From a virus, in IMG/VR virus record IMGVR_UViG_3300036792_000267, positions 32,001 to 96,000 of that record: a stretch of DNA of 64,000 nucleotides. The stretch is one strand, 5' to 3'. A program made the translations under genes and the position numbers. Numbering within the stretch: position 1 is the first letter of the stretch; every line of letters starts with the position of its first letter. Shown piece by piece: positions 7,220 through 59,200 of the stretch. The notes beneath the pieces are model-generated. The model was given only the letters and a program-made list of their open reading frames with translations, searched no databases and was not told the origin of the DNA.

Positions 7220-7792
7220 GTGAAGACTTATGTACCAGGAGTGCCCCGAACTTGCAGTCGCTGCCATAAGTCCGACAGTGAAGTTGAGTTCCCGCCATAC
7301 CGTTCGGCTTACTGCGTTGTTTGCCGACCGCTGGCCAAGCAGGACTGGGCTGTCGGCAGCCGGACGACCATCCGTATTCAGGAGAGTGCTCAGCGGCTGG
7401 CCCGTCATCAGCGCGATCCGGACGGGGAGTGGCGTAAGGAACTGGACAAGCACTTGCGGTCTAAGTTCCATATCACGGTTGACGACTATGACCGGATGTA
7501 TGAAGCTCAGCACGGTCTGTGTGGTATTTGCGGGAAACCAGGTCGCGGGTCTGCCAGATTCGATGGCAGCGAAAGGCGTCTTGCTGTTGACCATGACCGA
7601 CGTTGTTGCCCTGGTGACAAGTCCTGCGGGAAGTGTGTTCGCGGCCTTCTCTGTGGGTCGTGTAACCCTAAGCTCGGTTTTTACGAGCTGTTCGAGAATC
7701 AATGTCAGTCCTGGCGGAACCGCCGTGTTCAAGTGGAGGAGGTGGTGCTAGATGTCCGGAAAGATTGGCGACGACGGAGCCCTGCGGCTTAG
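7220..7792 (+). CDS. Endonuclease VII-family homing endonuclease
   Basis: Q..LCGIC, LAVDHDRRCC, VRGLLCxxCN; lower GC. Confidence 0.85.
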   Translation: MKTYVPGVPRTCSRCHKSDSEVEFPPYRSAYCVVCRPLAKQDWAVGSRTTIRIQESAQRLARHQRDPDGEWRKELDKHLRSKFHITVDDYDRMYEAQHGLCGICGKPGRGSARFDGSERRLAVDHDRRCCPGDKSCGKCVRGLLCGSCNPKLGFYELFENQCQSWRNRRVQVEEVVLDVRKDWRRRSPAA

Positions 7793-8589
7793 TTGGTCCC
7801 GCCTCCGGCTTCATTTAGCATGACGAGTGCCCCGCTAAAGGGGACCTGCTGCGCAAGCACAAGTCGCCGGTGCAGGACGCGCGCAACTACTTTCACGGCA
7901 ACGTGGTTGACCTGGCCATGCGCCGCTGGCTGAGCCAGGAGGACCCGGAGGCCGGGTGGATGGCCGCCCAGGTCGACGCGATCTTCGATGAGTCCATCGG
8001 CATCGCCAGGGACTCTGGTGACGGCATCGTCCGGTGGAAAGGCCCCAACGACAAGAACGAGACCCGCGAGTTCTGCCGCGAGCTGGTGAAGCGGCTGGAG
8101 CCTATCCTGTGCAAGTACGCTATCCCGTTTGAGTGGCAGCCCGCGGAGCGGTTCTCTGTGCCCCTCCGGATCGAGGACCTGAACGGGTCGATGCGCGAGA
8201 TCATCCTCATCGGCGAGATGGACTTGCTGGTGCGTGACCGCGAGGGGCGGTACGCGGTCTGGGACCTGAAGGCGACCAGGGACAACAGCTACTACAAGAA
8301 GGTGCTCGGCCAGCTCGCGTTCTACGCCATCGCCGTGAAGGCGATGAAAGGCCAGTTCCCGGTGATGACGGGACTGATTCAGCCGATGTGCGACCAGCGG
8401 GTGCTCCCGGTCACCGTCGACCATGACGCGGTAGCCCAGATGGCTGGCCGCATTACCAAGGCCGCCCGCGACATCTGGGCCGGCAAGCTCGCCCCAAAAG
8501 CTGACAATGCCGGGTGCGCGTACTGCCCGGTGAAGCACGCCTGCCCCAAGTTCAGCTCCGGCGGCCGGGCAGCCCTGGCTGCGGCGTAG
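7752..8589 (+). CDS. PD-(D/E)xK RecB/Cas4-like exonuclease; needs a 7-nt bypass at 7815-7821
   Basis: Strong SD + ATG 7752; SWS..H-D-E-CP N-terminal motif restored only by hopping CAT TTA G CAT; GEMD, DLK, QLAFY, CAYCPVKHAC. Confidence 0.85.
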
Positions 8590-8597
8590 TACCTGAC

Positions 8598-8849
8598 ATG
8601 GGACTTGAGGAGACGGTAGCCAGGCTGCGCGAGGACGTGACTGCCGCCCAGCGCCAGCACGCCAGCGCAGCGGCGCAGGCAGAACAGGCCGGCGCCCGCG
8701 CTGCCACGGTCCGCGAGGACCTGGAATCCGGGTTCGGCGTGACCACTGTGGAAGCAGCCAAGGCTGAGCTAGCCAGGCTGGAGAGCAAGCTCGCGACCGA
8801 GGCAGCCGAGGTACGGCGGCAGCTCGGCCTGGCAGGAGGGGCAGCATGA
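8598..8849 (+). CDS. Small coiled-coil protein
   Basis: ATG 8598 after CGTAGTA motif; heptad Ala/Glu pattern. Confidence 0.65.
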   Translation: MGLEETVARLREDVTAAQRQHASAAAQAEQAGARAATVREDLESGFGVTTVEAAKAELARLESKLATEAAEVRRQLGLAGGAA

Positions 8850-10015: not shown

Positions 10016-10030
10016 CAGAGAGGCACCGAG

Positions 10031-10585: not shown

Positions 10586-10756
10586 TGGCGGTCACTGTCG
10601 GAACGTTCCGCTTGTCGAGGCAGAGTGTGGCCGTCACTGACGGCAAGCGCCACATCCAGTTCGATACCCCTGCTGACATGGTGGACTGGCTGAACCGTCA
10701 CCCGGAGGTAGTTGCCGACATCTGCCATTTCGACTGGACGACTCAGGCAGTTCTTG

Positions 10757-11410: not shown

Positions 11411-11412
11411 TT

Positions 11413-24196: not shown

Positions 24197-24270
24197 AGGG
24201 GTGTAGCTCAGTAGGTCAGAGCAGCGGTCTCCAAAACCGTGTGCCGCGGGTTCGAATCCCTCCTCCCCTG
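24197..24270 (+). tRNA. tRNA-Trp(CCA)
   Basis: Cloverleaf; loop CT CCA AA. Confidence 0.9.
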
Positions 24271-24566
24271 CGACCGTCAGCAACGGCGAGAGCCTGAGCA
24301 GGCGCATGTCAACCGCATATTGACACTTCCACAGCGTGAGCATCTGCGGCGGGCGCCAACCCGCCGCAAGTTTCGGCGTGGTGAAAGACAATGCAGCTAC
24401 TCCCGGGGAGCAGCAGCCGTTAAAGGCTGGGGTCGCCGCAAGGCGGTCCTGTACCGGGCACCGTGCCAGTTTGAAAGCTTGCCGTGCCGTCATCAGGCGG
24501 AGTACACGGCAGCCAAGCGTGACGGCCGGGGCCGCGTTCACACCGTGGTCTCGCCGTCGCGCCTAT

Positions 24567-24639
24567 GGGGTCTTAGCTCAGCTGGAAGAGCATCTGCTCG
24601 GCAGACAGAAGGTCACGGGTTCAAGTCCCGTAGGCTCCA
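24567..24639 (+). tRNA. tRNA-Ala(GGC)
   Basis: G3:U70; loop TC GGC AG (C33). Confidence 0.8.
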
Positions 24640-24775
24640 CTGGACCGGATGGCAAGTCTGTCGCCATGTGTAGAGGGCCGTGACGGGTACCTCAGCGGCG
24701 GTTATACCGAAAGCCGGGTGTCTCCGGTGGCAAAGCGGCAGGTTTCGCGGGACATCTCCGTCATCCGGTTCTCCT

Positions 24776-24848
24776 GGGGCTTTAGCGCAGCTGGTAGCGC
24801 GCTGCATTCGCACCGCAGAGGCCGCGGGTTCGACTCCCGCAAGCTCCA
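24776..24848 (+). tRNA. tRNA-Ala(CGC)
   Basis: G3:U70; loop TT CGC AC. Confidence 0.88.
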
Positions 24849-25124
24849 CGTGGCGGACCGTGGCACGGCATCCGCAGCAGGGCCGATCACCCTGTGCACA
24901 GGTAACCGGCCTTGAATGCCCGGCGCGAGTCCAAGCGTCCGGGGCGGAGGCACCCGCCACTCCAATTCCCGGTGAGTAAGCCGTGGCAGGCTGAGGGGCC
25001 GGGGCAATGCGGAACAAGGCACGTGCTGGTCTGCCCCGTCGGTTCCAACCTCCGGGCCTGCTGGCCAAGGTCGCCTCGCCAGGCGGCTGATGCGGCGATG
25101 CAGGACCATGACGACCAGATTCAA

Positions 25125-25198
25125 CTAGCTATGGCGCAGCTTGGTAGCGCATCGCGTTCGGGACGCGAGGGCCGCAGGTTCAAATCCTGCTAGCCAGA
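25125..25198 (+). tRNA. tRNA-Pro(CGG)
   Basis: Loop TT CGG GA. Confidence 0.88.
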
Positions 25199-25199
25199 C

Positions 25200-25274
25200 T
25201 GGGGTGTAGGGAAGATTGGTCATCCCGCCTGCCTTGGGTGCAGGAGATCGCCGGTCCGAGTCCGGTCACCCCGA
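25200..25274 (+). tRNA. tRNA-Pro(TGG)
   Basis: Loop CT TGG GT; T-loop TCCGAGT. Confidence 0.82.
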
Positions 25275-25320
25275 CCCGTGTGAGTCAACCGACACACGTA
25301 AATCCCCATCGGTTGAGCCT

Positions 25321-25394
25321 GGGGCCTTAGCTCAGTTGGTAAGAGCGTCTGGTTGAAACCCGGAAGGTCGGTGCGTCGAGTGCACCAGGTCCCA
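25321..25394 (+). tRNA. tRNA-Phe(GAA)
   Basis: Loop TT GAA AC; atypical T-loop GTCGAGT. Confidence 0.82.
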
Positions 25395-25408
25395 CGCAGT
25401 AACACAAT

Positions 25409-25481
25409 GGGGATGTGGCCGAGCGGCTACAGGCTCCTGCCCTCCAAGCAGGCTACGCGGGTTCGATTCCCGTCATCCCCT
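25409..25481 (+). tRNA. tRNA-Gly(TCC)
   Basis: Loop CC TCC AA (C33); U73. Confidence 0.82.
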
Positions 25482-25588
25482 CTGGTACGGGCCAGACTCA
25501 TAATCTGGTTGCGTGCAAGCGGCTGTCGCGCCGCGGCCGGGCCGCCTGACGGGGGGCGACACCTTCGTCAGGGGCGCCGGTTGTTTAC

Positions 25589-25661
25589 GTGCCGCTAACT
25601 CAATTGGCAGAGTACCGTCCTCTTAAGTCGGGAGTTGGGGGTTCAAGTCCCTCGCGGCGCA
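25589..25661 (+). tRNA. tRNA-Lys(CTT)
   Basis: Loop CT CTT AA. Confidence 0.88.
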
Positions 25662-25744
25662 CTGGAGGCGGTCCGGAGACCGCGCCCGTGGCTGACAACG
25701 ACGTACAGGTCTCCTGCTGTCAGCGGGCCCGCCTCCAGCTTTTC

Positions 25745-25820
25745 GGGCGAGTAGCAGAACCGGCATATGCGGCGGCCTCAAAACCCGTGTCTCCTGCGGG
25801 TTCAAGTCCCGCCTCGCCCA
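25745..25820 (+). tRNA. tRNA-Leu(CAA)
   Basis: Loop CT CAA AA; short variable arm. Confidence 0.82.
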
Positions 25821-25917
25821 CGCGGCTGGCAAGGCCGTTCTGCGAATCCTTGCCCGGTCCCCTCTGCGGGAGGAACAGGTCCGTCAATCCGGGGTCAGCA
25901 AAGAGCCTCGGCAACTA

Positions 25918-25989
25918 TGGAGTATGGGGTAATCGGCAGCCCGGCAGATTCTGGCTCTGTCAGTCTTGGTTCGAGTCCAGGTACTCCAG
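25918..25989 (+). tRNA. tRNA-Gln(CTG)
   Basis: Loop TT CTG GC. Confidence 0.9.
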
Positions 25990-26108
25990 CGAGAGCAGCA
26001 GGTCAAGGTGCATCTCGATCTCGTCATTGGTGATGAGGCTGACAGCCAGGTCGATGAAGTCAAGTTCGTCCATACTCATTAAGTTCGCGAGCAGGCCGAA
26101 CTGTGAGG

Positions 26109-26654
26109 TCAGTCAGGAACGTAGAGGTGGTGCGGGAGGATGTTCAGCGTGTAAGTCCCGTCGAACCGCGGCATGCTGCCGGCCAGCTCCCCCAGGTGCC
26201 AGTAGACGTGGACCGCTAGGTGCTCCCACACGGCCCCGCCGGTCAGCAGGGACACCGGCACCCCGGCAGGCGCGGGAGCGTCCCACTGGCTGAGGTCGAA
26301 CTCGTCCAGTACCCGCAGCGCCTTGGTGACCGTCTGGCAGAACACGCGCAGCAGGACCACCTTCGGGAACGTCTCCCGGTCGACGCTGGCTGCCTTGCTG
26401 ACGGCACTGGGCTCGGCCAGGTTTGTCTCGTTGAACACCTGGTGGACCGAGCGGCTGAGGACCGTCCGCCGCCCGTCGAGCCACGAGCTGAACAGGTCAG
26501 CCACGCAGGCCAGGTGCCCGATCGTCCAGGCAGCGGAGAACCCGGTCGGGAGTTCTTCGAAGAACTCGTCGTTACTGACCGGCTCCAGGCCGAGTAGCAG
26601 TATGTTGCCGCTGCGGTCGATCTGCCGCGCGACGACTTGCTTAGCAGTAGTCAT
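26109..26654 (-). CDS. DinB/YfiT-like protein
   Basis: SAAWTIGHLA and HVYWHLGEL His motifs; CGTAGTA motif 5 nt upstream of ATG. Confidence 0.8.
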   Translation of the reverse strand: MTTAKQVVARQIDRSGNILLLGLEPVSNDEFFEELPTGFSAAWTIGHLACVADLFSSWLDGRRTVLSRSVHQVFNETNLAEPSAVSKAASVDRETFPKVVLLRVFCQTVTKALRVLDEFDLSQWDAPAPAGVPVSLLTGGAVWEHLAVHVYWHLGELAGSMPRFDGTYTLNILPHHLYVPD

Positions 26655-26665
26655 GCTTTTACTAC

Positions 26666-26739
26666 GCCCCGGTAGCTCAGCCGGAAGATGCGCTCGCTTC
26701 GTAAGCGAGAGGTCCCCAGTTCAACTCTGGGTCGGGGCT
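26666..26739 (+). tRNA. tRNA-Thr(CGT)
   Basis: Loop TT CGT AA. Confidence 0.85.
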
Positions 26740-26859
26740 CGGTCAGGCTGAGGCAGGGGAGGCCCTTCACCGGGTCGCACTAGGTTGCCCGCAGCCCAGT
26801 AGCTTGGGCACGGGAGAAGGATGCCGGGCAGCACGGCCCGGGTGTAGGCCTGACAACAA

Positions 26860-26943
26860 GCCCGAATGCTGCAATCGGTAGACTGACCCGCTTGAGGAGT
26901 GGGTGTCCTTCGGGGCGTGCGGGTTCGAGTCCCGCTTCGGGCA
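26860..26943 (+). tRNA. tRNA-Leu(GAG)
   Basis: Loop TT GAG GA; long variable arm. Confidence 0.88.
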
Positions 26944-27040
26944 CCTGGGGGAGATCCGGTGTAGCGCACCGGCTGGGGGCCAGGGCCCCTGGTAGTTCAA
27001 AAGTCGCTGACAGCCCTGGCAGAAAGAACACCCCCTCTAC

Positions 27041-27113
27041 GCCGGCTTAGCTCATCGGGCAGAGCGCCCGCCTTGTAAGCGGAAGGTGACCCGTTCGAGT
27101 CGGGTAGCCGGCT
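27041..27113 (+). tRNA. tRNA-Thr(TGT)
   Basis: Loop CT TGT AA. Confidence 0.88.
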
Positions 27114-27213
27114 CGGAGGCTGCATGCAAGGTACGGCGCGCTAACGCGCGGGACAGCGCAGGAACCCGAGTACCGTCGTAAACCGACTGTCCTTGCAGCC
27201 TCCTTCAGCTCGC

Positions 27214-27287
27214 TCCGGGGTGGGTTGTGCGGCATCCCGTCTTGACTTTGGATCAAGGGCACGCCAGTTCGATTCTGGCCCCCGGAA
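27214..27287 (+). tRNA. tRNA-Gln(TTG)
   Basis: Loop CT TTG GA; divergent D arm. Confidence 0.78.
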
Positions 27288-27296
27288 CAAGCACAT

Positions 27297-27370
27297 GCCC
27301 CGGTAGCTCAGTTGGCGAGAGCGTTTCCCTGGTACGGAGGAGGTCCCGCGTTCGATTCGCGGTCGGGGCT
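27297..27370 (+). tRNA. tRNA-Thr(GGT)
   Basis: Loop CT GGT AC. Confidence 0.88.
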
Positions 27371-27381
27371 CGCAAGATCAT

Positions 27382-27454
27382 GCCGACGTGGTGCAGCTGG
27401 TGGCACATCGCCTTGCCAAGGCGGAGGTCGCGGGTTCGAATCCCGTCGTCGGCT
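27382..27454 (+). tRNA. tRNA-Gly(GCC)
   Basis: Loop TT GCC AA. Confidence 0.88.
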
Positions 27455-27590
27455 CGTGTACCCCGCCGTGGCCACCGGGTAAGGGGGTTCAGCACATGCC
27501 CGGGTCGCGCCCGGCACGGTGGCACGGCTGCCCTGGCAGCCTGCTCTCCTGACGACAGGGGACAAGGGGGCTCAGCCCTCCCAGGGACGC

Positions 27591-27674
27591 GGGCGGGTGG
27601 CGGAATAGGCAGACGCGCACGGTCCAGGCCCGTGTATCCCGCAGGATGTGAGGGTTCAAGTCCCTCCTCGCCCA
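27591..27674 (+). tRNA. tRNA-Leu(CAG)
   Basis: Loop TC CAG GC (C33); long variable arm. Confidence 0.86.
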
Positions 27675-27765
27675 CTTTCGGGTCCGCTCCCGTGGCCCGG
27701 GGGCGTCGCGCATCGCGCCGCGGCGGTTCCAGTCCTCCTGCTAGCGGAGGGCGAACGGGAGGCCC

Positions 27766-27856
27766 GGAGGGATGGCACGAGTGGCTTAAGGCGCTGTCCT
27801 GCTAAGGCAGAGGGTCTGCGAGAGCGGCCCCGCGGGTTCGAATCCCGCTCCCTCCG
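27766..27856 (+). tRNA. tRNA-Ser(GCT)
   Basis: Loop CT GCT AA; long variable arm. Confidence 0.88.
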
Positions 27857-27941
27857 CTTCTGTACCGGATACCAGCCAAGTCCGTTAGGTGGTGACGCAG
27901 GTACAGCGCCCGCGGGAGACGGCAATCCTTGGCGGGCACCT

Positions 27942-28027
27942 GGAGGGTTCGCCTAGTCCGGCCTATGGCGCTGCGTCGGAAGCGCAGTTGGTTAACAGCC
28001 TCGCGAGTTCGAATCTCGCACCCTCTG
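27942..28027 (+). tRNA. tRNA-Ser(GGA)
   Basis: Loop TC GGA AG (C33). Confidence 0.85.
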
Positions 28028-28031
28028 CCCC

Positions 28032-28122
28032 GGAGAGGTAAATCGAGTTGGCCTACCGATCGCGGTCCCGAAAACCGTCAGGGGGTTCGTCCCCCGTGTG
28101 AGTTCGAGTCTCACCCTCTCTG
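28032..28122 (+). tRNA. tRNA-Ser(CGA)
   Basis: Loop CC CGA AA (C33); long variable arm. Confidence 0.82.
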
Positions 28123-28315
28123 CGCATGGCTTGAGGCGGTACCCGCGGGCCGCTGCAGGTACCGCCTCCGTAATCGCCAGGCGAATGAATCTGCTCGGAT
28201 TCAGCTTCGAGACCAGACTCGGTGCCTTGCAGGCGGCTGTTACCGCCTGCACCCGAAAGCATACATACGGTTACGATCTTGAGCAAGCGGCGAAATAGCT
28301 CAAGATGTCTGGCAC

Positions 28316-28388
28316 GGGCGGGCAGCTCGATGGTTCGAGCAGCTTCCTGATACGGAGAAGGTTGGAGGTTCAAGTCCTCCTCCGCCCA
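28316..28388 (+). tRNA. tRNA-Ile(GAT)
   Basis: Loop CT GAT AC; C at position 8. Confidence 0.82.
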
Positions 28389-28399
28389 CGTACGACCGG

Positions 28400-28473
28400 A
28401 GGCCGGTAGCTCAGCTGGTCAGAGCGACACGCTTATAACGTGTGCGTCAGGAGTTCAAGCCTCCTCCGGCCTA
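28400..28473 (+). tRNA. tRNA-Ile(TAT)
   Basis: Loop CT TAT AA. Confidence 0.85.
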
Positions 28474-28476
28474 CGA

Positions 28477-28552
28477 CGCGGGGTAGCTCAGTTGGCAGAG
28501 CAGCCGGCCCATAACCGGAAGGTCGCGGGTCCGAGTCCCGTCCTCGCTACCA
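28477..28552 (+). tRNA. tRNA-Met(CAT)
   Basis: Loop CC CAT AA (C33); 1:72 mismatch; encoded CCA. Confidence 0.82.
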
Positions 28553-28553
28553 C

Positions 28554-28627
28554 GGGCCGCTAGCTCAACAGCGAAGAGCAGTTGCCTTTTAAGCTTCAGG
28601 TTCCGGGTTCGAGCCCCGGGCGGCCCA
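28554..28627 (+). tRNA. tRNA-Lys(TTT)
   Basis: Loop CT TTT AA. Confidence 0.85.
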
Positions 28628-28778
28628 CTAGCCTGGTTCCTGTGAAGACTCTGGCCTGGCTCCTCGATGAAGCCCTGGACCGGCTCCCGTGCCGCGAGGA
28701 CGGCCGGTGGCGCTGGTACGGCGAGTGGGGCTGCCGACTGGAGAACAGGTTTCCTGTCCTGCGCGAGTGGATGTACGA

Positions 28779-28852
28779 GCGCCGGTAGCTCAGCCGGATA
28801 GAGCGGCTTCCTTCTAAGAAGACGGCCGGGGGTTCGAATCCCTCCCGGCGCG
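28779..28852 (+). tRNA. tRNA-Arg(TCT)
   Basis: Loop CT TCT AA. Confidence 0.88.
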
Positions 28853-28863
28853 CGCATGAACAT

Positions 28864-28941
28864 GGTCTTGCAGAGCAGTCCGGAGTGCTCGCCTGCCCCT
28901 CAAGCAGGAGATCGTCGGTTCGAATCCGTCCAGGACCACCA
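28864..28941 (+). tRNA. tRNA-Glu(CTC)
   Basis: Loop CC CTC AA (C33); C8; encoded CCA. Confidence 0.8.
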
Positions 28942-28942
28942 A

Positions 28943-29016
28943 GCCCCCGTCGACTAGCGGCCTAAGTTACCGCCCCTTCAAGGCGGCGGACACCGGTTCG
29001 AATCCGGTTGGGGGCA
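28943..29016 (+). tRNA. tRNA-Glu(TTC)
   Basis: Loop CC TTC AA (C33). Confidence 0.85.
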
Positions 29017-29050
29017 CGTGGGCATCAGGATTTATCCTGGTGTCCTTCGA

Positions 29051-29126
29051 CGCGGAGTAGGGGAGTTCGGTCGTCCCCGCGGCGCCCATAACGCCGAGAT
29101 CGCGGGTCCGAATCCCGCCTCCGCCA
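29051..29126 (+). tRNA. tRNA-Met(CAT), initiator-like
   Basis: C1:C72 mismatch; loop CC CAT AA (C33). Confidence 0.82.
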
Positions 29127-29230
29127 CGGGAAGGAACTGCCCAGCTCCCTTGCATCCGGATGCATCGGCACGCGCGGCTGGCGTTCCGGCACAGCGGCCC
29201 GGCCCCGGTCGTTCCCAAACGGGGCCTCTA

Positions 29231-29303
29231 TCCGGTGTGGCGCAATCGGCAGCGCAACTGACTGTTAATCAGAGGGTTCCCGGTCCGAGTCCGGGCACCG
29301 GAG
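29231..29303 (+). tRNA. tRNA-Asn(GTT)
   Basis: Loop CT GTT AA. Confidence 0.88.
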
Positions 29304-29412
29304 CGCGTGGGCCTGGGGCCTGCGGGATACAGCCTGGTCCGCGGCCGGGCCCGGGTCCCGTTGGGCGGAGAAGCAGCCATACCCAGGGAAGCGGGGGTGC
29401 CCCGCACATCAT

Positions 29413-29487
29413 GGTGACGTAACTCAGCATGGCCAGAGTGCTGCCTTGTCACGGCAGAAGTCGCGGGTTCAAATCCCGTCGTTACCG
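29413..29487 (+). tRNA. tRNA-Asp(GTC)
   Basis: Loop TT GTC AC. Confidence 0.9.
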
Positions 29488-29831
29488 CGTGCCCCGTCGT
29501 CGCACGATGACCGTGCAGGCCAGGGCGAACAGCGCTAGCAGGCCGATGACTGGCCATGTTAGCCAGTGCAGCCCGGCCGCCTTCAGCAGGTCATCAAGGA
29601 TGAAGCCGAGCGCGACGCCGACCAGGATGAACAGCATCGTTAGCCGAGCCCGGCGCGACGCCGCCGCTCGGCGTGCTCGAAGTCACGGATGCGCCGGATG
29701 GCGAGGTGGCCGCCGAACTTGAGGCCGGTCGCGATGCCAGCGCCGAAGACGGCTAGCAGCAAGATGAAAGTGCCCACGTGATTAAACGGTACGTCACCCC
29801 CTGGTCTCTTTACCAGGGGCAAGCAAGACAT

Positions 29832-29905
29832 GGCCGTGTAGCTCAGCAGGCTAGAGCGTTTCCATGACACGGAAGAGGTCCCTGGTTCAAGTCCAGGTAC
29901 GGCCA
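29832..29905 (+). tRNA. tRNA-Val(GAC)
   Basis: Loop AT GAC AC. Confidence 0.88.
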
Positions 29906-29906
29906 C

Positions 29907-29979
29907 GCGCGCGTAGCTCAACGGATAGAGCTGCAGTCTACGGAACTGTGTGTTGGAGGTTCGAGTCCTCTCGTGCGCA
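29907..29979 (+). tRNA. tRNA-Arg(ACG)
   Basis: Loop CT ACG GA. Confidence 0.9.
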
Positions 29980-30039
29980 CTGGACGGCAGGTGAGCAGGC
30001 TGACACCGCCTTCGGGCTCAGCCCCCTGCCGTCTTTCAA

Positions 30040-30113
30040 GTCCGGTTAGCTCAGCCTGGGAGAGCGCTGCCTCCACACGGCAGGCGTCGGGGGTTCAAAT
30101 CCCTCACTGGACA
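30040..30113 (+). tRNA. tRNA-Val(CAC)
   Basis: Loop TC CAC AC (C33). Confidence 0.85.
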
Positions 30114-30114
30114 C

Positions 30115-30190
30115 GGTGGGATTTGCCGTCGAGGGAAGGCGCAGGGTTGTGGTCCCTGCAAGGCGGGTCCGACTCCCGTATCTCACCCCA
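30115..30190 (+). tRNA. tRNA-His(GTG)
   Basis: Loop TT GTG GT; G-1; encoded CCA. Confidence 0.82.
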
Positions 30191-30191
30191 A

Positions 30192-30271
30192 AGCGACAGT
30201 GGGCGGCGGCACGCCCAGCGGCCTGTAAAGCCGTGGCCTTGGCAGACCTGGGTCGGCACCAGGTGTCGCTA
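30192..30271 (+). tRNA. tRNA-Tyr(GTA), atypical
   Basis: Loop CT GTA AA; intact acceptor stem; aberrant D and T loops. Confidence 0.7.
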
Positions 30272-30364
30272 CGTTAAGGTTTTCCCGAGAAAAGGAGAGC
30301 CTATGCCCAGGTACACGATTCCCTGCGTCGCCCACTGTGAAAGCGGGGCATTAACGCAGGTCTT

Positions 30365-30438
30365 GCGCTCGTAGCTCAGTGGACAGAGCACCGGCTTCCG
30401 GAGCCGGGTTGTCGGAGGTTCGAGTCCTCTCGGGCGCG
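30365..30438 (+). tRNA. tRNA-Arg(CCG)
   Basis: Loop TT CCG GA. Confidence 0.9.
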
Positions 30439-30442
30439 CTAT

Positions 30443-30519
30443 GGCGGTATGGCCGAGTGCGGTTCAGGCACACGTCTGCAAAACGTGGTACCCGGGTTCG
30501 ACCCCCGGTACCGCCTCCA
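30443..30519 (+). tRNA. tRNA-Cys(GCA)
   Basis: Loop CT GCA AA; U73; encoded CCA. Confidence 0.88.
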
Positions 30520-30520
30520 T

Positions 30521-30594
30521 GACCCTGTAGCTCAGCTGGACAGAGCTGCTTCCCCCTAAGGAGCGAGTCGCTGGTTCGAGTCCAGCCAGGGCCA
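30521..30594 (+). tRNA. tRNA-Arg(CCT)
   Basis: Loop CC CCT AA (C33). Confidence 0.82.
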
Positions 30595-30903
30595 CGTACG
30601 CCGGTGCTCACGCTGTGGCAGTTCCGAGGTCCAATTACTCCCCGTCGTCCCCTGGGACTGGCGGGGATTTTCCTTGTGCTTATGGTGTAAGGCAGGAGGC
30701 CGGGTACGTGACTCGGCTTCGCGGATCGAGAACGGAACCGGCCTCCTGCCCCATCAGAGTACATTCGCCTCATTGTCCCGGTTCATCCCGTAGCCCGGGT
30801 TTGGTCACGGTTCAGTTAACTTGTGGCAAGAAACACGGTTCCTGCGCCATAGTGGACTGTTTCCCCGCGGTCAGCGCGGGGGTTGGAGTGAGGGGAACGC
30901 TCT

Positions 30904-38762: not shown

Positions 38763-39470
38763 TTAGGCGGCGGCCTCTAGCGCCATCCGGGCCTGGTGCC
38801 GCTCTATGTAGTCGGCTGCAGCCCGTAGCAAGTCGGGGTCGTCGTTGAACATGCCGAGAGCGACGTTGAGGTTCCGGCGGATTAGCCCGCGTAGGCATTT
38901 CCCGCAGCTCCGGTCACCGGGACAGCAACTGCGGTCGTGATCGACGGCGAGGGGGTAAACCTTGCCGGTGCGCTTGCTGACCGAGGTCTCAGGTCGGCCG
39001 CTGATCTCGCAGACGCCGGCCTGCTCAGCTAGTTTTTGGTCGTACCAGCCTGGCGGAAGGCTGTAGACACGATCTCGGTTCTTGGCCCCTTCGCCGTTTG
39101 CGCTGAGGCAGTCCCAGCATTTCCGGCGGTTCTGGTGAGTGGGGTTCACTCTGCAGGTGGCGCAGAGTTTCCCTTGCGCCCGGCAAGCTCCGCACTCGTT
39201 GCGCTCCTTGTCGCCGGGGCTCTTATCTCGCCCGCAGGTAACGCACTTGATTCGGCAGGCCGGGCAACGTTGAGCCTTTGCTCGGTTGTTGCCGCGGTAG
39301 GGCTGGCCGCATGATTCGCAGGGGCGTTCAGCTGTGGCGTATCCGCTGCGCTTACGGACTTTGGCGGCGGCGCACAGGGAGCAGTACGAGCTGAGGGCTC
39401 CTGATGGATAGCGGTGCCGTGGCCGCGTTTTGCAGGTCGGGCAGATGGGTTCGTTTCCGGAGACATTCAC
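38763..39470 (-). CDS. Endonuclease VII-family homing endonuclease with N-terminal Cys repeats
   Basis: LAVDHDRSCCPGDRSCGKCLRGL..N.ALG.F.DDP.LLR.A..Y. Confidence 0.85.
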   Translation of the reverse strand: MNVSGNEPICPTCKTRPRHRYPSGALSSYCSLCAAAKVRKRSGYATAERPCESCGQPYRGNNRAKAQRCPACRIKCVTCGRDKSPGDKERNECGACRAQGKLCATCRVNPTHQNRRKCWDCLSANGEGAKNRDRVYSLPPGWYDQKLAEQAGVCEISGRPETSVSKRTGKVYPLAVDHDRSCCPGDRSCGKCLRGLIRRNLNVALGMFNDDPDLLRAAADYIERHQARMALEAAA

Positions 39471-39637
39471 ATTCTCTACTACGTCTGGCCGACTTACCGA
39501 TTAGACGGGGCAAGCGCTCAGGCGTTAGGCCAGCCAGGTGGCTCCTCTACGAGGGAGCGGCGCAGGCCGGGCTCGGAACTTCGGGTCGCTGTGGAACTTA
39601 ACAGCACCTGCCGGCAATGGTCGGCTGACCGGAGGAG

Positions 39638-40883
39638 GTGAGCCCGATCCCTGACATCAGTCTTTTGGAGCCCGTAGTGCTCCGAGGGGTCGTTTTAAGT
39701 TGAGAAGTTTGTAACGCCAGAAACGTTGCTGCTGCTCAACCGCCTGGACCAGACCCCGTGGCCCTTCCCGTCCGCCACCTGGGACGTGGTGAAGGGATCG
39801 AGAGCGGTCGCCAAGCCGAACGTGCCCAACTCTGAGGCGCACATCATCTCCCGGCTCGGCAGGAGCCAGGAAAGCGCGAGCTTCATCTACTTGCGCGAGA
39901 AGAAGGTCTTTGAGCCGACCACGCTGCACTGGCTGCGGACGCCGGGCGAGATCGCCCGCATCAACGCCGAGCGCGCGGTGCTGAGGGAGATCAACGACCT
40001 CAACCAGCGGTTCGACAACTTCGCCGAGTGGAGCGCCTGGCAAGCGCTGGGCGGCGCGATCCAGTACAACTACGGCGACGTCCAGGCCCTGGTGGACTAC
40101 AAGTTCCCGCGCAGCCACTTCGTCACCCCGGCCACGCCGTGGGTCACTAACACCGCGCTCGGCTACTACACCACCGGCGGCGCCACCGCGGCCGGCGCGG
40201 GAACCAACAGCGGCCAGCCGGGCCAGCCGACCACCCTGGGCCAGGCCCAGACCTCGCTGACCGCGGCCGGCGGCACCATCACCTACGCGACCCCGGTGTC
40301 GATCATCGAAGACGTGCGGTCGTGGAAGCGGCTGCTGGCCGTGCACGGCCGGGTGCCGGCGAAGGAAGTTTTCGCCACCAGCGTCACCATGGCCGGCCTG
40401 ATGGAAGCGTGGGTGTCCGCCACGCAGGCGTCTACCGTGTCGATCCCGGCGACCATGATGAGCGACCGGATGAAGGACGAATTTTACTCGACCGGCATCA
40501 TGACCGGCTTCATGGGCCTCGTCTGGACCACGGTGGAGCAGGTCTTCGAGTCCGACCTCGGCAACCTGACCTTCTTCGTGCCGGATGGCATGATCTACCT
40601 GGGCAACTACACCGACCAGCGGCCAGTGGAGGTCCTGGTCGGCCCGACTGCCGACGACGAGGCCCCCGAAGGTTTTACCGGAAAATATGCCAAGACCTGG
40701 AAGGAGAAGGACCCGTCCGCTCGTCAGTACCTGTTGGAGTGGCACATGCTCCCGATCATCACCAGGCCTGAGCAGATGCTGGTAGCCACCAACGTCATCT
40801 CTGCGGGCGGCAGCGTCACCGTCCCGGCCGGCTACTACAACGGCGGGGCCGGCACTGGCGGAAGCAACGCGCCGGTCGACTAG
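39638..40883 (+). CDS. Major capsid protein; needs a 7-nt bypass at 39695-39701; start GTG 39638 or ATC 39647
   Basis: Lambda E-like pattern, follows decoration gene; N-terminal PDISLLEPVVLRGVV joins EKFVTPETL only by hopping GTT TTA A GTT. Confidence 0.85.
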
Positions 40884-51088: not shown

Positions 51089-51152
51089 GCACCCTCCGAT
51101 TGGAAGGGCGAGCCAGGAGTTTGGCTCGCCCTTCACCATGTCTGGAGGCAGC

Positions 51153-51950: not shown

Positions 51951-51953
51951 GTC

Positions 51954-52823: not shown

Positions 52824-52857
52824 CAGCGCTCTGTTGTCCTTTCCGCGTATTAAAGGT

Positions 52858-53427: not shown

Positions 53428-53484
53428 AAGCACAACCGATTAAACCTCCCGAAGGCGCAACCGGCCATCGGGAGGTCTGTCGTT

Positions 53485-54144: not shown

Positions 54145-54146
54145 CC

Positions 54147-54359: not shown

Positions 54360-54493
54360 CTGCGTAAGCTGGCTGTTGGCTGAGGAAGGCCGAGAACGGC
54401 GCGCTTGGGCACAGGGGAGACCCTGAAGCGCGCCGTTCGCATGTCCGCCGATTGTCCCGGCATCAGCCCCGAGAGTCCCTGAGAGGACCCGTT

Positions 54494-55506: not shown

Positions 55507-55528
55507 GGGCGTGGGCGTAGTAGTCAGC

Positions 55529-56230
55529 ATGGTACGTAATTCATCAATGCTGTCCGACGAGTCTTGGCTGCGCGAGCGCTACCTCGTTGACGAACTGTCC
55601 ACCACCGCCATTGCGGCGCTGGCCAACTGCTCTCAGGCCACGGTGTGCAACCGGCTGGCCGGGTACGGAATCCCGCGGCGTCCCCGAGGTCGCTTTACGC
55701 AGAGCCGGATCGACGCTGACGGCCGAGAGTGCACGGCTTGCGGTGACTACAAAGCGTGGAACGAGTACTCGCCTAGCAAGCCGACGCAGCCAGGCGGCCG
55801 GTACTCCGTCTGCAAGGTCTGCTGGAACGGCACGCGCGGTGGCGGCCCCGGTAACCGGAATGGCGAGTACCGTGCGTGGGCACTCAAGCGCATGGGCATC
55901 ACGCAAGCCGAGTACGACTGGCTGCTAGCCCTGCAGAAGGGCGTGTGCGCTCTCCATGGTGGCCCGGAGACTAGGAAGGGTGCGCTGTACCTTTCCGTCG
56001 ACCACGACCACAACTGCTGTCCGCCGGTAAAGGTCGGGCAGACCCGGTGCTGCAAGAAGTGCATCCGCGGCCTGCTCTGCCACGACTGCAACCACATGGT
56101 CGGCCTAGCTGAGAAGCTAGGTCAGGCGTGGCGGTTCCCTGATTACCTGGGCTCGCGCCCCTTCATGGGGAAGGGGGTGGTGCTCATGACGCCTTATTCT
56201 GAGCCTCTGAGCCACAGTTGTGGCTTATGA
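55529..56230 (+). CDS. Endonuclease VII-family homing endonuclease with N-terminal HTH
   Basis: WLRERY..LST..IA, LSVDHDHNCC, IRGLLCHDCN. Confidence 0.85.
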   Translation: MVRNSSMLSDESWLRERYLVDELSTTAIAALANCSQATVCNRLAGYGIPRRPRGRFTQSRIDADGRECTACGDYKAWNEYSPSKPTQPGGRYSVCKVCWNGTRGGGPGNRNGEYRAWALKRMGITQAEYDWLLALQKGVCALHGGPETRKGALYLSVDHDHNCCPPVKVGQTRCCKKCIRGLLCHDCNHMVGLAEKLGQAWRFPDYLGSRPFMGKGVVLMTPYSEPLSHSCGL

Positions 56231-59200
56231 GGGACCAGAATACTGGTTAGATCGCTTTGGTATGTAATTTACAAGGCGATCGGTTTAACATTCAGGTGAC
56301 TTCGGCGACCTGATGCGGGACGCGGCGCAGGCTAAGGCCGCGCTGCAGGGGATGGGCGATGCGGCCAAGGCGGAGACCGCGGCCGAGGTGGCGGGCGCGA
56401 CCCAGGCCGCCGCCGCGCGCGGCAAGGGCATCACGTCCATCCAGCAGGAGACGCAGGCCCTTAACCAGCTCGCCAACGCCGCCAAGCAGACCAACGTCCA
56501 GCTGCTCTACGGCGGCCGGAATGACATGACCCAGCACCTGAGCGACCTGGCTCAGGAGCTGAACTACACCACCTTGCTCAACCGGCAGAAGTGGCTCGGC
56601 TTCTCCTCCGTCCAGCAGGCCATGTCGTACCGCCAGCAGATGTATAACCTGGCGCTGCTGGAGAACAAAGCGCACTTCGCCGGCTACCTGACCGCGGACC
56701 AGTACCTGGGCTTCCTGCAGCGCGAGACCGCCCAGACCGCGGCGCTGTCGGCCGCCATCCGCGACCGCAGCGCGGCCATCGGCGCCGAGACCCAGATGCT
56801 GCTCGCGCACGCCAACGCGCTGCAGGGCACCCACGCGACGGCAGGCAGCCTGGGCGAGGGCCTGAGCACGGTCAACGCCTACAACGTGGCGCTGGTCGGG
56901 CTGCCGGACACGGTGGTCACCAAGGCCGTCCTTGATGACAGCCAGGCGATGTCGCAGCTGGCTGCCTACCGCGCGGCGCTGACCTCGCTTCCCAACGCGG
57001 AGACCACCGACATCACCTCGGTTGCCACCCGGCTGGGCGGCGTCCCGCTGACGGGCGCGCGCCAGGCGGTGCCGGTCAGCGTCCGCCCCGAGATCGACTA
57101 CGCCGCGATCAACAAGATGCTGTCCCAGGCGGTCGCCGGGGCGCACCCGGAGGCGCTGCGCGCGCCGCTGGCCATCACCGGGTCGGGAGCGGCGGATTCC
57201 GCGCTGTCGGCCACGGCGGATTCCGCGCTGTCGGCCACGGCGGACGACGCCGGCGCGCTGTCGGCGTCCATGTCCGAGCTGAGCGACAAGGCGGCCATTT
57301 CCGCCGAGGCAATCAGCAAGTTCCAGGACTCCCTCGCGCTGGCCGCGGTCGACGCCCGCGCGCTGGAGCAGGGACTCGGGCGCCTGTCGGCCGCCGAGCA
57401 GCTGCTGTCTGAGGTTAACGCCCAGTTCGTGCCGCAGAAAGGCCGCAAGAAGGCGGCGGCTGCCGACCCGGCGCAGAACCTCGCTGACCTGTACGGGCTG
57501 CAGGACGTCGCCGGCGCGCTGCGCGAGGGCGCGATCTCCGACGCGCCGCGCGGCTACCCGCTGTCCGCCCCGGGCATGAAGATCATCCCGCCGACGCAGG
57601 CGGGAGAAGAAGACCTGTGGTCGGGGCTGTCCAAGTACATGCAGGGCGGCAAGGCCGCGGGGACTGCCACCGAGAAGGTTGCCGTCGAGGGCGGCCAGGA
57701 GGCCGAGGCGACCCTCGACAAGATCGCCGTCCAGATGGAGTGGCTGGACCATGAGGATGCCAAGCCGAAGCTAGAGCTGGAAGGCGGCCAGGAGGCGCTA
57801 GACGACGCCTACCACCTGGACGGCGTACTCGTCGGCCTGACTTACGAGCGCGCGGAGCCGGAAGTCGCCCTGCAAGGCGGAGCCGAGGCGCTGGGAGAAG
57901 TCACCGCCCTGGACGAGGGGCTGCACGAGATCCCGCACGAGACTGACACCGTCCTGGTGGTCGAGTCCTCCGGGGCCTCCAGCGAGGTCCGCGATTACAG
58001 CCGCGACATTGAGGACATCGAGCGTGAGGTGGGCACTCGCGCCGACTTCGAGGACACCGAGGCGGAGAGCGGGCTGTCGCGCTGGCTGACCGCCCTGGCT
58101 GCGGCGGTCCAGCACAAGTACGACTTCTACGCCAGCTTCAACGACGACGCGGCCAAGGCCGAGCTGGCCGGGTGGATCAGCGAGCTTGAGGCGGCACGCG
58201 CCGAGGAGAACCGCATCACCGCCGGCATGGGCGGTGCCTCCGGTGGCGGTGGCGGCGGAGGGCCGCCTGTTCCCCCTGCTGCCGCCGGCGACGCGCCCAA
58301 CCCGGATGACCGGGCGATGTGGGAGGCCGTCGCCGCCGAGATGGCCAAGGTAGACGCCCTCTTCAAGAACACCGGCCGTGACGCCGCTGCCGCCGGGGCC
58401 GCCGCGTCCAAGGCCGGCCGGGACGGCGCGCAGGCGGTCACCTCGATGGTGCTGCCGCTGACCAACGGCGCGCGCGGCTGGTTCGGCCTGCTCACCCAGG
58501 TCAACCTGTTCGGCGGCCTGCTGCCCGGCATCCTGGGCCACACCACGGCCCTGCACTTCGTCCTTGACGCGATCATCGAGACGATCGCCATCCTGCTGCC
58601 GGCCATCGTCACCATGGCAGCCGGGCTGACCGCGTTCGGCATCGCTGGCTACGACGCCGGCAAGGCGGTCTACGAGCGCCTGACGGCGATTCACACCGCG
58701 GCCGACGCCACCGGCCAGTCCATCCCGCCGCTGACCGGGAACCTGGAGAAGCTGCACGACACGGTGCGCCCGCAGGTCTGGCAGTTGTATGGCGACGCCA
58801 TCACCGTCGCGGGGGCGAAGTCCGGGCTCTTCAACCAGCTGGCCATCCAGACCGGGAACGTGGTCGACCGGCTGGCCGCGCGGCTGACGGTGGACCTGGT
58901 GCAGGGTGGCCAGGGGCTGAAGACGTTCCTGTCGGTCGGCGCGGAGAACCTGGCCAAGCTCGGCACCATCTTCGACAACCTCGGCAAGGCCCTGATGGCG
59001 TTCATCAAGGTCACCGAGGACACCCACATTGACCAGATTTTCCTGGCCATCTTCGTGGCGCTGTCCCAGTTCCTGGTGCTCATCACCAAGCTGCCCACCC
59101 CGTTGCTCGCCGCCGTGGTCGCGCTGCACGCGTTCTGGCTGTGGGGCGGCCTGCTGGCCACCGTGGTCCTGCAGATGCTCAACCCGCTGCGCTCGCTGGC

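Follow-up and report, generated by a model that had tools for sequence, protein, structure and literature searches.

Tiny UUA-led inserts break three conserved genes near their 5' ends in a complete soil phage genome (G000; 151 kb, 68% G+C, with terminal repeats), and each interrupted gene adjoins a gene for a nuclease with the EndoVII motif. The interrupted genes encode a Cas4-like nuclease (one insert, 7 nt), the major capsid protein (one, 7 nt) and the tape measure protein (two, 14 and 13 nt); all begin in the window, the 64-kb stretch of G000 analysed here. The four inserts fall in the first 16-25 codons, and each places a UUA directly after a sense codon. We lean toward the view that the EndoVII genes encode homing nucleases whose targets are split by the inserts in the genome that carries them, with ribosome hopping keeping the interrupted protein intact.

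Three interrupted genes and their neighbouring nucleases

A whole-genome search with PF02945 found exactly three EndoVII genes in the 151-kb genome, E1, E2 and E3 (Table 1), each at the 5' side of an interrupted gene and 20-220 nt from the inserts; we estimate the chance of three adjacencies out of three among ~200 genes at roughly 1e-5 to 1e-6. All three exceed the PF02945 cut-off and show the VDHD...RGL...N motifs in translation; their N-terminal regions differ, being Cys-rich in E1 and E2 and HTH-like in E3. A first-pass annotation of this DNA had already noticed that every EndoVII gene adjoins a gene with a TTA-led frame break, and this is borne out by the PF02945 matches together with direct reading of the sequence; indeed, the core of that observation is stronger than was claimed, while some of its details did not hold. 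All three nucleases had been placed immediately upstream of the broken gene. The adjacency stands, but E2 is on the minus strand and reads away from the capsid gene, whose start lies ~170 nt off. Three HNH genes had also been reported in the window, and none was found there: in G000, PF01844 matches a single place and PF13392 gives only one sub-threshold match, in both cases outside the window. The extended SD strings said to be common to the three junctions are present, but they are no more alike than expected by chance (2 matches seen, 1.7 expected), and the third lies 36 nt from the real tape measure start.

The nuclease genes come and go among relatives. E1, whose GC3 is lower than the genome norm and which a GC3 gene caller therefore missed, shares its last 41 nt with the start of the Cas4-like gene; together with a small ORF it forms an ~830-nt block that is absent from the closest relative (insertion between 6942 and ~7772 in the alignment with L082). 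L081 and L071 have E2 orthologues in the corresponding position (70-72% identity), and across 79 loci EndoVII genes show presence/absence polymorphism both upstream and downstream of the capsid gene. The last 11 nt of E3 overlap the tape measure start; G001 has the gene, G004 retains a 3' stub of it and G002 lacks it. Between G000 and its closest relative, G001, the gene is 69-72% identical against 80-90% for its flanks, and a gene more diverged than its surroundings gives no sign of a recent sweep or transfer.

Table 1. Features of the window discussed in the text (positions are those of the window)
Feature	Position	Strand	Details
Small ORF, no family	6938..7165	+	75 aa; no Pfam match, weak PHROG matches only
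E1, free-standing EndoVII-motif nuclease gene	7220..7792	+	190 aa; PF02945 (Endonuclease_7) E 1.5e-13; PHROG endonuclease VII families
Cas4-like PD-(D/E)XK nuclease gene	7752..8589	+	PF12705 E 1.6e-16; two frames: ATG 7752 to CAT 7814, then GAC 7822 onward
Candidate bypass site 1, CAT TTA G CAT	7812..7821	+	take-off CAT 7812-14, UUA 7815-17, G, landing CAT 7819-21; 7-nt shift
tRNA array, no UUA decoder	24197..30595	+	37 genes; ARAGORN on window and whole genome
E2, free-standing EndoVII-motif nuclease gene	38763..39470	-	235 aa; PF02945 E 1.8e-7
Major capsid protein gene	39638..40883	+	PF03864 E 9.6e-23; leader from GTG 39638 or ATC 39647 to GTT 39694; body from GAG 39702
Candidate bypass site 2, GTT TTA A GTT	39692..39701	+	take-off GTT 39692-94, UUA 39695-97, A, landing GTT 39699-701; 7-nt shift
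E3, free-standing EndoVII-motif nuclease gene	55511..56230	+	239 aa, possibly from ATG 55529; PF02945 E 6.2e-12
Tape measure-like gene	56220..64000, past window end to 64589	+	~2,780 aa; GTG 56220 start; three frame segments
Candidate bypass site 3a, TGG/TTAGATCGCTT/TGG	56244..56260	+	take-off TGG 56244-46, UUA 56247-49, gap 11 nt total, landing TGG 56258-60; 14-nt shift
Candidate bypass site 3b, GGT/TTAACATTCA/GGT	56282..56297	+	take-off GGT 56282-84, UUA 56285-87, gap 10 nt total, landing GGT 56295-97; 13-nt shift

Inserts with the form of UUA bypass sites

Judged by their sequence, the inserts in the window are UUA translational bypass sites of a kind already known from the Streptomyces phage phiHau3. 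At all four sites, and in at least 13 variant alleles of relatives, UUA follows the take-off codon directly, in the incoming frame; the shifts are 7, 7, 14 and 13 nt in the window and 4, 7, 10 or 13 nt in relatives. We infer hopping across the four sites by comparison with uninterrupted homologues: skipping the inserts gives exact colinear joins against Magritte, ~70 capsid loci, 12 tape measure loci and 33 Cas4-like loci. Take-off and landing codons are identical at all four window sites, and some alleles of relatives have a non-cognate landing codon (ACC to GCC, GGT to CGC, AAG to TAG), so that simple re-pairing cannot account for every allele. TTA occurs 15 times in 41,515 called codons (0.36 per 1000), mostly in dubious calls, and the tRNA array covers all four take-off codons (His-GTG, Val-GAC, Trp-CCA and Gly-GCC).

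At sites 1 and 2 the zero frame ends at TGA (7821-23 and 39701-03, respectively). The Cas4-like leader ...LSWSRLRLH runs into DECPAKG just as it does in L082, in Magritte and in 30 metagenomic relatives, and the capsid leader PDISLLEPVVLRGVV, joined to EKF, agrees with ~70 relatives. The first 30 capsid codons hold 14-19 synonymous versus 0-2 non-synonymous codon differences; the leader is still under strong purifying selection at the protein level. The tape measure gene had been given a start at ATG 56186 and a single bypass codon at TTA 56225, both wrongly. Its uninterrupted relatives begin VAYEGPEYW(Y/N)VIYKA(I/V)GDFGDLMRDAA, which puts the start inside the 3' end of E3, and there are two inserts instead of one. 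Site 3a has a hairpin, ACCAG/CUGGU, ending in the take-off codon (z -3.1, 66-nt stretch), and at the codon of site 3b variant inserts are present in L086, L087 and L089. No Pfam family was found for this gene, and its name rests on size and position.

Two other accounts of the frame breaks fit these observations poorly. That they are sequencing or assembly errors, or that the genes are dead, seems to us hardly credible: the genome was assembled from a metagenome, with no isolate, but the same inserts appear in independent IMG/VR contigs, assemblies and runs (site 2 is identical in contigs of two further soil runs), their form of TTA plus a repeated codon is stereotyped, the leaders are under strong purifying selection, and what is affected is the capsid, tape measure and portal genes of a complete genome with terminal repeats. 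It is also improbable that UUA is read slowly as Leu and the ribosome then slips into the +1 frame, the proteins gaining one to four extra residues. Insert lengths that are nearly all 3n+1 (4, 7, 10, 13 nt) and alleles that have no cognate landing codon would suit such a slip. However, in most inserts a ribosome slipping at once into +1 would meet UAA or UAG and terminate; the P site holds no slippery codon, the shift at site 3a is 14 nt, the junctions fall in invariant peptide motifs, and phiHau3 showed bypass instead (PMC10732093).

Covariation of nuclease genes and inserts in related phages

Co-occurrence of inserts and nuclease genes across related genomes, which the first-pass annotation had proposed as a check, was found. 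When ~100 related, phylogenetically non-independent loci are pooled, inserts interrupt 12 of the 23 nuclease-adjacent genes versus 4 of 76 others (Fisher p 1.6e-6, with no correction for phylogeny). Between G000 and G001 the two states covary perfectly at four genes: the Cas4 and capsid genes have nuclease and insert in G000 and neither in G001, the portal gene has neither in G000 and an HNH gene with two inserts in G001, and the tape measure gene has both in both genomes. An HNH gene also accompanies an insert at the portal gene of G004 (ACC/TTAG/ACC) and at the tape measure gene of L092. Beside the portal and tape measure genes of relatives, HNH genes take the role of the EndoVII genes.

Exceptions run in both directions. 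Eleven of the 23 nuclease-adjacent genes carry no insert, including that of L071, where the nuclease shares 72% identity with E2, and the Cas4 genes of L139 and L152. Four inserts have no nuclease nearby, with none within 2.5-3 kb in L005, L086 and L087. Nuclease decay is also seen: in G004 no more than the final ~70 nt of the nuclease gene is left beside the two tape measure inserts, and G002 and L087 keep one insert and no nuclease.

At the position of site 2, other capsid alleles are interrupted by different TTA inserts or by a group I intron. In L045 the intron (RF00028, 40.6 bits, E 4e-9) falls precisely at the VV/EKF junction, and upstream there is an EndoVII gene. Nuclease-adjacent capsid alleles are, moreover, synonymously recoded around the insert site: over the first 30 codons GC3 is 0.66 where a nuclease lies upstream and 0.83 where none does (p 1.2e-4), and codons 31-150 show no GC3 difference between the two groups. 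L139, with an EndoVII gene upstream of its Cas4 gene, shows Asp replaced by Ala in the invariant H[DE]EC motif, at the point where the G000 insert lies.

A proposed role for the inserts

It is the covariation of nuclease and insert, the intron at the same capsid position, the local recoding and the decay of nucleases with inserts kept that lead us to the homing interpretation. For example, consider a phage carrying both nuclease gene and insert. In nuclease-free relatives the nuclease would cut the conserved 5'-proximal sequence of the neighbouring gene; in the carrier genome the insert would split this DNA target and render the carrier immune. During translation the ribosome would stall with UUA in the A site, a codon almost unused by the phage and decoded by none of its 37 tRNAs, and the peptidyl-tRNA would quit the take-off codon and re-pair with the identical codon 7-14 nt downstream, preserving a colinear protein. 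In other alleles a group I intron or dense synonymous recoding may do the same job, and the inserts would outlast the nuclease once it decays. If this is true, the inserts shield the phage's own genes from a selfish neighbouring nuclease. Homing immunity, the cleavage site and the origin of the inserts are all matters that we infer, from sequence comparison. The earlier proposal that the inserts destroy a nuclease target without changing the protein thus finds partial support, in that the comparative evidence fits; its spread of a single cassette by homing is not borne out, since insert sequences vary between alleles at one site.

It is possible, though we would not count on it, that the inserts are instead repair scars, left where the nuclease cuts its own or a co-infecting genome and the ends are joined imprecisely, with fill-in duplication and filler. 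Only scars that chance to be hoppable, with UUA first and a repeated codon, would survive in essential genes, immunity would be a side effect, and there would be no travelling cassette. The last triplet of each well-formed insert repeats the codon before it, as a small duplication would; the variety of inserts found at a single capsid codon, and at tape measure codons close to one another, suggests repeated origins; and the Cas4 insert is unique among 33 relatives, though other EndoVII genes occupy that position. At the same time, all inserts begin with TTA and nearly all shift by 3n+1, which would demand very strong filtering of random scars, and TTAACCTGG is found unchanged in both the portal gene of G001 and the tape measure gene of L092. 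This origin overlaps with the homing interpretation rather than excluding it.

We consider it unlikely that the inserts are chiefly regulatory, UUA-dependent hopping controlling how much capsid, tape measure, portal and nuclease protein is made, or when, through the host's UUA-decoding tRNA, and the nuclease genes merely favouring the same intergenic spots. Such gating is the published phiHau3 model (PMC10732093), and it suits a phage that avoids UUA, has no decoder among its 37 tRNAs and conserves two serial tape measure hops at 90% identity. Most relatives, however, make the same proteins without any insert, so gating is dispensable; it would also throttle the most abundant virion protein, and it leaves unexplained why inserts covary with nuclease genes, why an intron sits at the same codon and why there is local synonymous recoding.

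Comparison with known systems

The closest precedent for the inserts themselves is the phiHau3 terminase, where UUA-mediated bypass was proposed by Smith et al. 2013 and given mass spectrometry support by Antonov et al. 2023 (PMC10732093). Read directly, the phiHau3 gene contains GGC/TTACTCC/GGT and TCT/TTAACGG/TCC, and it shares with our sites the sense take-off codon, the UUA directly 3', the few bases and the synonymous landing codon, all in a high-G+C actinophage setting. The genes differ, being Cas4-like, capsid and tape measure in the window and portal in relatives; the inserts here always lie in the first ~60 codons, with many alleles per site; and, whereas the published phiHau3 blocks are 7 or 10 nt (PMC10732093), shifts of 4, 13 and 14 nt occur here and in relatives. 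Free-standing nuclease genes adjoin the inserts described here. PMC10732093 does not discuss such genes, and in phiHau3 no nuclease gene adjoins the terminase, the sole HNH gene lying 1.4 kb upstream.

The proposed role has its analogue in T4 mobA and gene 60, where, in the account that Manning and Atkins give of Bonocora et al. 2011, a 50-nt bypass insert is believed to shield the carrier against the nuclease that it encodes (bioRxiv 10.1101/2022.08.31.505936); mobA decays while the bypass persists, and different nuclease families can hold the same spot (bioRxiv 10.1101/2022.08.31.505936). In both cases a free-standing beta-beta-alpha-metal nuclease gene sits beside a bypassed insert in a conserved gene, and decay with the bypass kept is matched by G004, G002 and L087. 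We nonetheless reject membership in the gene 60 bypass family, as the gaps here are 4-11 nt, only one of the four window sites folds better than shuffled sequence, and there is no consistent take-off stem-loop; the window elements have no sequence relationship to the MobA cassette, and the resemblance is functional only. In gene 60 the take-off codon is followed by UAG and there is a nascent-peptide signal; here a hungry UUA replaces the stop codon. Nor is the gene here split into two ORFs with added tails, as in T4, and several genes per genome are affected.

For the nucleases, the parallel is F-CphI of cyanophage S-PM2 (DHHRN family), a free-standing EndoVII-motif homing endonuclease that targets the psbA intron insertion site (PMC6083498). 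E1-E3 likewise pair the EndoVII motif with a free-standing phage gene beside a presumed target gene, and L045, with its EndoVII gene beside the capsid group I intron, has the layout of 'collaborative homing'. Unlike the F-CphI system, the window has as its interrupting element not an intron, but a bypassed mini-insert.

The phage genome and its nuclease genes

The complete genome (G000) is a single IMG/VR record of 151,377 bp with direct terminal repeats, a completeness rating of 100% and a G+C content of about 68%; the window spans its positions 32001-96000. Among 50,697 deposited phage records, megablast and tblastn found Microbacterium phage Magritte as the sole relative, at a capsid identity of only 48%, and our comparison therefore rests on contigs from IMG/VR and from soil metagenomes, where many relatives closer than Magritte are found; soil metagenome runs also yielded contigs with the same sequence as the window. 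A whole-genome search returned exactly three PF02945 genes, E1, E2 and E3, which lie beside the Cas4-like, capsid and tape measure genes, respectively, and whose PHROG assignments are consistent with PF02945. All three were skipped by the GC3-based gene caller because their third-position G+C falls under the genome norm.

Features of the window, and capsid inserts in related loci. Hyphens separate take-off codon, skipped stretch and landing codon.
Feature	Position	Strand	Family	Sequence or remark
E1, EndoVII-motif nuclease	7220-7792	+	PF02945 (Endonuclease_7)	
Cas4-like PD-(D/E)XK gene	start ATG 7752		PF12705	
Site 1	7812-7824			CAT TTA G CAT GAC
DNA polymerase III beta-clamp homologue	8846-10015			
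Radical SAM protein	11413-14385			990 aa
tRNA gene array	24197-30595			37 genes; rare-codon decoders AUA, AGA, AGG, UUG present
Portal gene	32249-33853		PF06074	uninterrupted in G000
E2, EndoVII-motif nuclease	38763-39470	-	PF02945 (Endonuclease_7)	
Major capsid gene			PF03864	
Site 2	39692-39704			GTT TTA A GTT GAG
L005 capsid insert	same place as site 2			GTT-TTAG-GTC
L081 capsid insert	same place as site 2			GTT-TTAGCGG-GTC
L053, L055 capsid insert	same place as site 2			GTT-TTACCGG-GTT
L007 capsid insert	one codon pair 5' of site 2 position			10 nt
E3, EndoVII-motif nuclease	55511-56230	+	PF02945 (Endonuclease_7)	
Site 3a	56244-56260			TGG-TTAGATCGCTT-TGG
Site 3b	56282-56297			GGT-TTAACATTCA-GGT

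Four UUA-led inserts in three genes

The Cas4-like gene starts within the final 41 nt of E1. Its leader, ending LSWSRLRLH, runs into TTA GCA TGA, and its body, DECPAKGDLL..., continues in the +1 frame. The closest relative, G001 (L082), Magritte and 30 metagenomic relatives read an unbroken ...SR(L/I)Rx-H-(D/E)EC..., and a 7-nt skip at site 1 produces exactly this join.

The capsid gene is interrupted in the same manner: a leader ending PDISLLEPVVLRGVV is followed by TTA AGT TGA, the body begins EKFVTPET, and about 70 relatives carry ...LRGVVEKF... unbroken. Contigs from two additional soil runs, on other samples, show the identical junction at site 2. Across the first 30 codons, the window differs from its relatives by 14-19 synonymous and 0-2 non-synonymous codon differences, which indicates that the 16-codon leader 5' of the insert is still under protein-level selection, as would be expected only if the leader is joined to the body. 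Where most relatives have an ATG or GTG capsid start (39638-39649), ATC is found in the window and ATT in several relatives; the ATT/ATC alleles are those of the window, L004, L005, L011, L013, L016 and L050, most with an upstream EndoVII gene or an insert. Initiation is either non-canonical or, in the window's case, at GTG 39638 with hardly any spacing from the SD. A contig from the peat metatranscriptome run X24, matching window 39557-39697, contains a relative's capsid leader, then TTAGGCC, then GAGAAATTC, and thus another insert allele at the same codon in an RNA library; as DNA carry-over is possible, we set it aside as evidence that the insert is kept in mRNA.

In the tape measure gene, the uninterrupted relatives (L088, L090, L091 and L096) start VAYEGPEYW(Y/N)VIYKA(I/V)GDFGDLMRDAA, from which it follows that the window's gene begins at GTG 56220 and needs two hops, at sites 3a and 3b. 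The first-pass annotation had instead placed the start at ATG 56186 with a TTA at 56225, which these homologues contradict. Both inserts recur in three independent IMG/VR contigs. The protein, encoded from 56220 to beyond 64000, is unusually long at about 2,780 aa.

RNA folding revealed no stimulatory structure common to the four sites; a fold more stable than that of shuffled sequence was obtained solely for the tape measure start with site 3a (z -3.1, 66-nt stretch). Within 56205-56246, a hairpin AGCCAC/GTGGCT encloses the GTG start and overlaps the nuclease stop, and an adjacent hairpin ACCAG/CUGGU ends in the take-off codon TGG of site 3a. The 66-nt fold suggests that tape measure initiation may be coupled to translation of the nuclease.

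Homology-free and alignment-based scans of G000 found no further convincing TTA-led breaks, so all four inserts lie about 20-220 nt from one of only three EndoVII genes in a genome of roughly 200 genes. Searching the genome for the bare pattern codon-TTA-N-codon produced 25 matches, about as many as chance would give and only two of them real, and a wider scan was also too noisy. A motif, GATTA(A/G)...GTGC(A/G)TG, recurs at gene junctions (18382, 36455 and 46016 in the window), where TTA overlaps the preceding gene's stop codon and comes before the SD and start of the next; we rejected these as bypass sites, as they are ordinary stop/start junctions.

Probable hopping at UUA

Read directly in the phiHau3 sequence, the two terminase sites of that phage (GGC-TTACTCC-GGT and TCT-TTAACGG-TCC) have the same architecture as the four window sites. 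Mass spectrometry of the phiHau3 product in E. coli identified a junction peptide consistent with bypass, not frameshifting (PMC10732093). Judged by sequence, the window inserts enlarge the phiHau3 bypass class, and we infer that hopping occurs at them. A simple +1 slip is argued against by the +1 frame itself, which begins with UAA or UAG in most inserts, and by the lack of a slippery P-site codon. The skipped lengths to be hopped are nearly all 3n+1 (4, 7, 10 and 13 nt) in a tally of the window, L005, L007, L053, L081, L086, L087, L089, L092, L093, G001 and the related genome G004; the sole exception is the 14 nt at site 3a in the window and G001, where G004 has 13 nt. In some relatives the landing codon is non-cognate.

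TTA is the rarest sense codon in G000: it occurs 15 times among the 41,515 codons called, and most of these cases lie in doubtful calls or in stop/start overlaps. None of the 37 phage tRNAs decodes UUA, and none CUA, while tRNAs for all four take-off codons are present. Given UUA at the bypass sites, the absence of a UUA decoder looks deliberate.

Inserts accompany nuclease genes across relatives

Our capsid survey covered 79 IMG/VR loci, in which TTA-led inserts were found in five loci besides the window (Table) and the remaining loci were intact. An iterated EndoVII profile placed EndoVII genes 5' of the capsid gene at 13 distinct loci and 3' of it at many others. Three of the 13 upstream cases have an insert, and in one (L045), whose upstream ORF is an EndoVII gene, VV and EKF are separated, exactly at their junction, by an insertion of about 260 nt. 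This insertion is a full-length match to the group I intron model RF00028 (40.6 bits, E 4e-9) that falls below the Rfam 50-bit cut-off, being seen in a permissive local search only and missed at the gathering threshold. Another locus, L071, has an E2 orthologue 72% identical, yet no capsid insert. The first 30 capsid codons specify a nearly invariant peptide. GC3 over this stretch is 0.66 for the 11 alleles that have a nuclease upstream and 0.83 for the 44 that have none (Mann-Whitney p 1.2e-4), with no such difference at codons 31-150 (0.93 versus 0.90, p 0.62). The leader 'GGAGGTGACGCC', common to insert-bearing capsid alleles, was considered and dismissed as evidence of cassette transfer, as that box is also found ahead of tape measure genes with no interruption.

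The tape measure comparison covered 12 loci. Inserts occur with an upstream EndoVII or HNH gene in the window, L084/L085, L093 and L092 (in the last an HNH gene, PF01844); L089, from G004, has both inserts and a nuclease gene reduced to its last ~70 nt; L086 and L087 have one insert and no nuclease; and L088, L090, L091, L095 and L096 have neither. Between G000 and G001, E3 is 69-72% identical and its flanks 80-90%, so that E3, the more diverged, bears no trace of recent transfer.

In G001, an HNH gene (PHROG 8446, E 1e-14) is inserted directly upstream of the portal gene, which contains ACC-TTAA-GCC and GGC-TTAACCT-GGT; in G004, an HNH gene is again directly upstream, with ACC-TTAG-ACC. The string TTAACCTGG, with Gly codons on both sides, is present in the G001 portal gene (L107, ~9700-9800, minus strand) and in the L092 tape measure gene (~2480), suggesting either that the insert has moved or that the two genes have converged on an optimal sequence for hopping. 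In G001 (~117061) and another relative, G003 (~11975, L097), an insertion of TT (2 nt), seven codons from the start, gives TAC TTA GC in the homologue of a gene (65368-66426) that lies just past the window; in G003 the insertion is directly downstream of an EndoVII gene. We did not count this change (TAC TT AGC) as a bypass, as an ATG in the other frame (MALLLSN...) could be the start without recoding.

For the Cas4-like gene, the window alone among 33 loci has an insert. EndoVII genes occupy the E1 position in three other loci and are unrelated to E1 (37-38% identity). One allele with such an unrelated upstream EndoVII gene (L139; contig Ga0210389_10003990, ~2500) has Ala for the invariant Asp/Glu of H[DE]EC, exactly at the window's insert position, and may represent an escape substitution.

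Overall, nuclease and insert covary perfectly between G000 and G001 at four genes, and 12 of 23 nuclease-adjacent genes are interrupted versus 4 of 76 others (Fisher p 1.6e-6, with counts that are not phylogenetically independent and some loci partial). The pairing of EndoVII genes with bypass described in the first-pass annotation is real and, once corrected, stronger; its tape measure start and TTA were wrong, and none of its three HNH genes was found in the window with PF01844, PF13392 or Pfam scans of low-GC3 ORFs (PF01844 matches at a single place in G000 and PF13392 only below threshold, both outside the window). A few inserts have no nuclease nearby, about half of the nuclease-adjacent genes have no insert, and, checked directly, no nuclease gene adjoins the phiHau3 terminase. 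The pairwise blastn indel lists were noisy and TTA cases were chosen by eye, which may have left some inserts undetected where G001-G005 align poorly. The literature searched makes no mention of UUA inserts being systematically paired, in several essential genes, with free-standing genes of the EndoVII and HNH types.

Discussion

Very few cases of natural translational bypassing are known, and its purpose is debated. A genome carrying a homing endonuclease classically escapes its own enzyme in one of three ways: the sequence is locally recoded with synonymous codons, or the same codon carries either an intron or a mini-insert. We believe that immunity of the carrier to the adjacent nuclease is the best-supported function of the inserts and, on the comparative sequence evidence, probably the correct one; the pairing then amounts to a variant of the mobA/gene 60 logic. 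The inserts at one site differ in sequence, and this fits a repeated origin, for example as repair scars filtered for hoppability, and also fits cassette spread. A regulatory role for UUA may coexist with immunity. The phiHau3 terminase bypass has so far been read as a regulatory lysis/lysogeny sensor (PMC10732093), and the purpose of the T4 gene 60 bypass as nuclease immunity (bioRxiv 10.1101/2022.08.31.505936).

This phage group adds many bypass cases, with a clear and testable link to free-standing EndoVII and HNH genes, and at one site, the L045 capsid gene, a group I intron takes the insert's place. If the link is causal, both known bypass classes would come under one evolutionary logic; gap length, landing codon and the 3n+1 bias would be directly testable through natural variants; and annotators would have reason to suspect hop-joining in any capsid, portal or tape measure gene that seems to lack a start or SD.

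More tentatively, and with rather less confidence than we place in immunity itself, short UUA-led bypass inserts might have evolved repeatedly in high-G+C actinophages as a general defence against homing endonucleases. Ribosomes that hop at a starved codon would then provide an evolvable patch, with which essential genes could tolerate frame-breaking insertions. Were this so, most natural short-hop sites, possibly including those of the phiHau3 terminase, would be footprints of nuclease conflict, made where the nuclease cuts the beginnings of conserved genes or close by. The four genes studied here (capsid, tape measure, portal and Cas4-like) together supply 17 or more natural inserts, with at least four sites in a single genome, and these would serve as a ready set of mutants from which the rules of short hops could be read.

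The L045 layout, an EndoVII gene with a capsid intron, matches that of F-CphI, an EndoVII-motif enzyme in 'collaborative homing' with the psbA intron (PMC6083498), and the series from nuclease stub to orphan insert matches the description of MobA and the gene 60 bypass (bioRxiv 10.1101/2022.08.31.505936).
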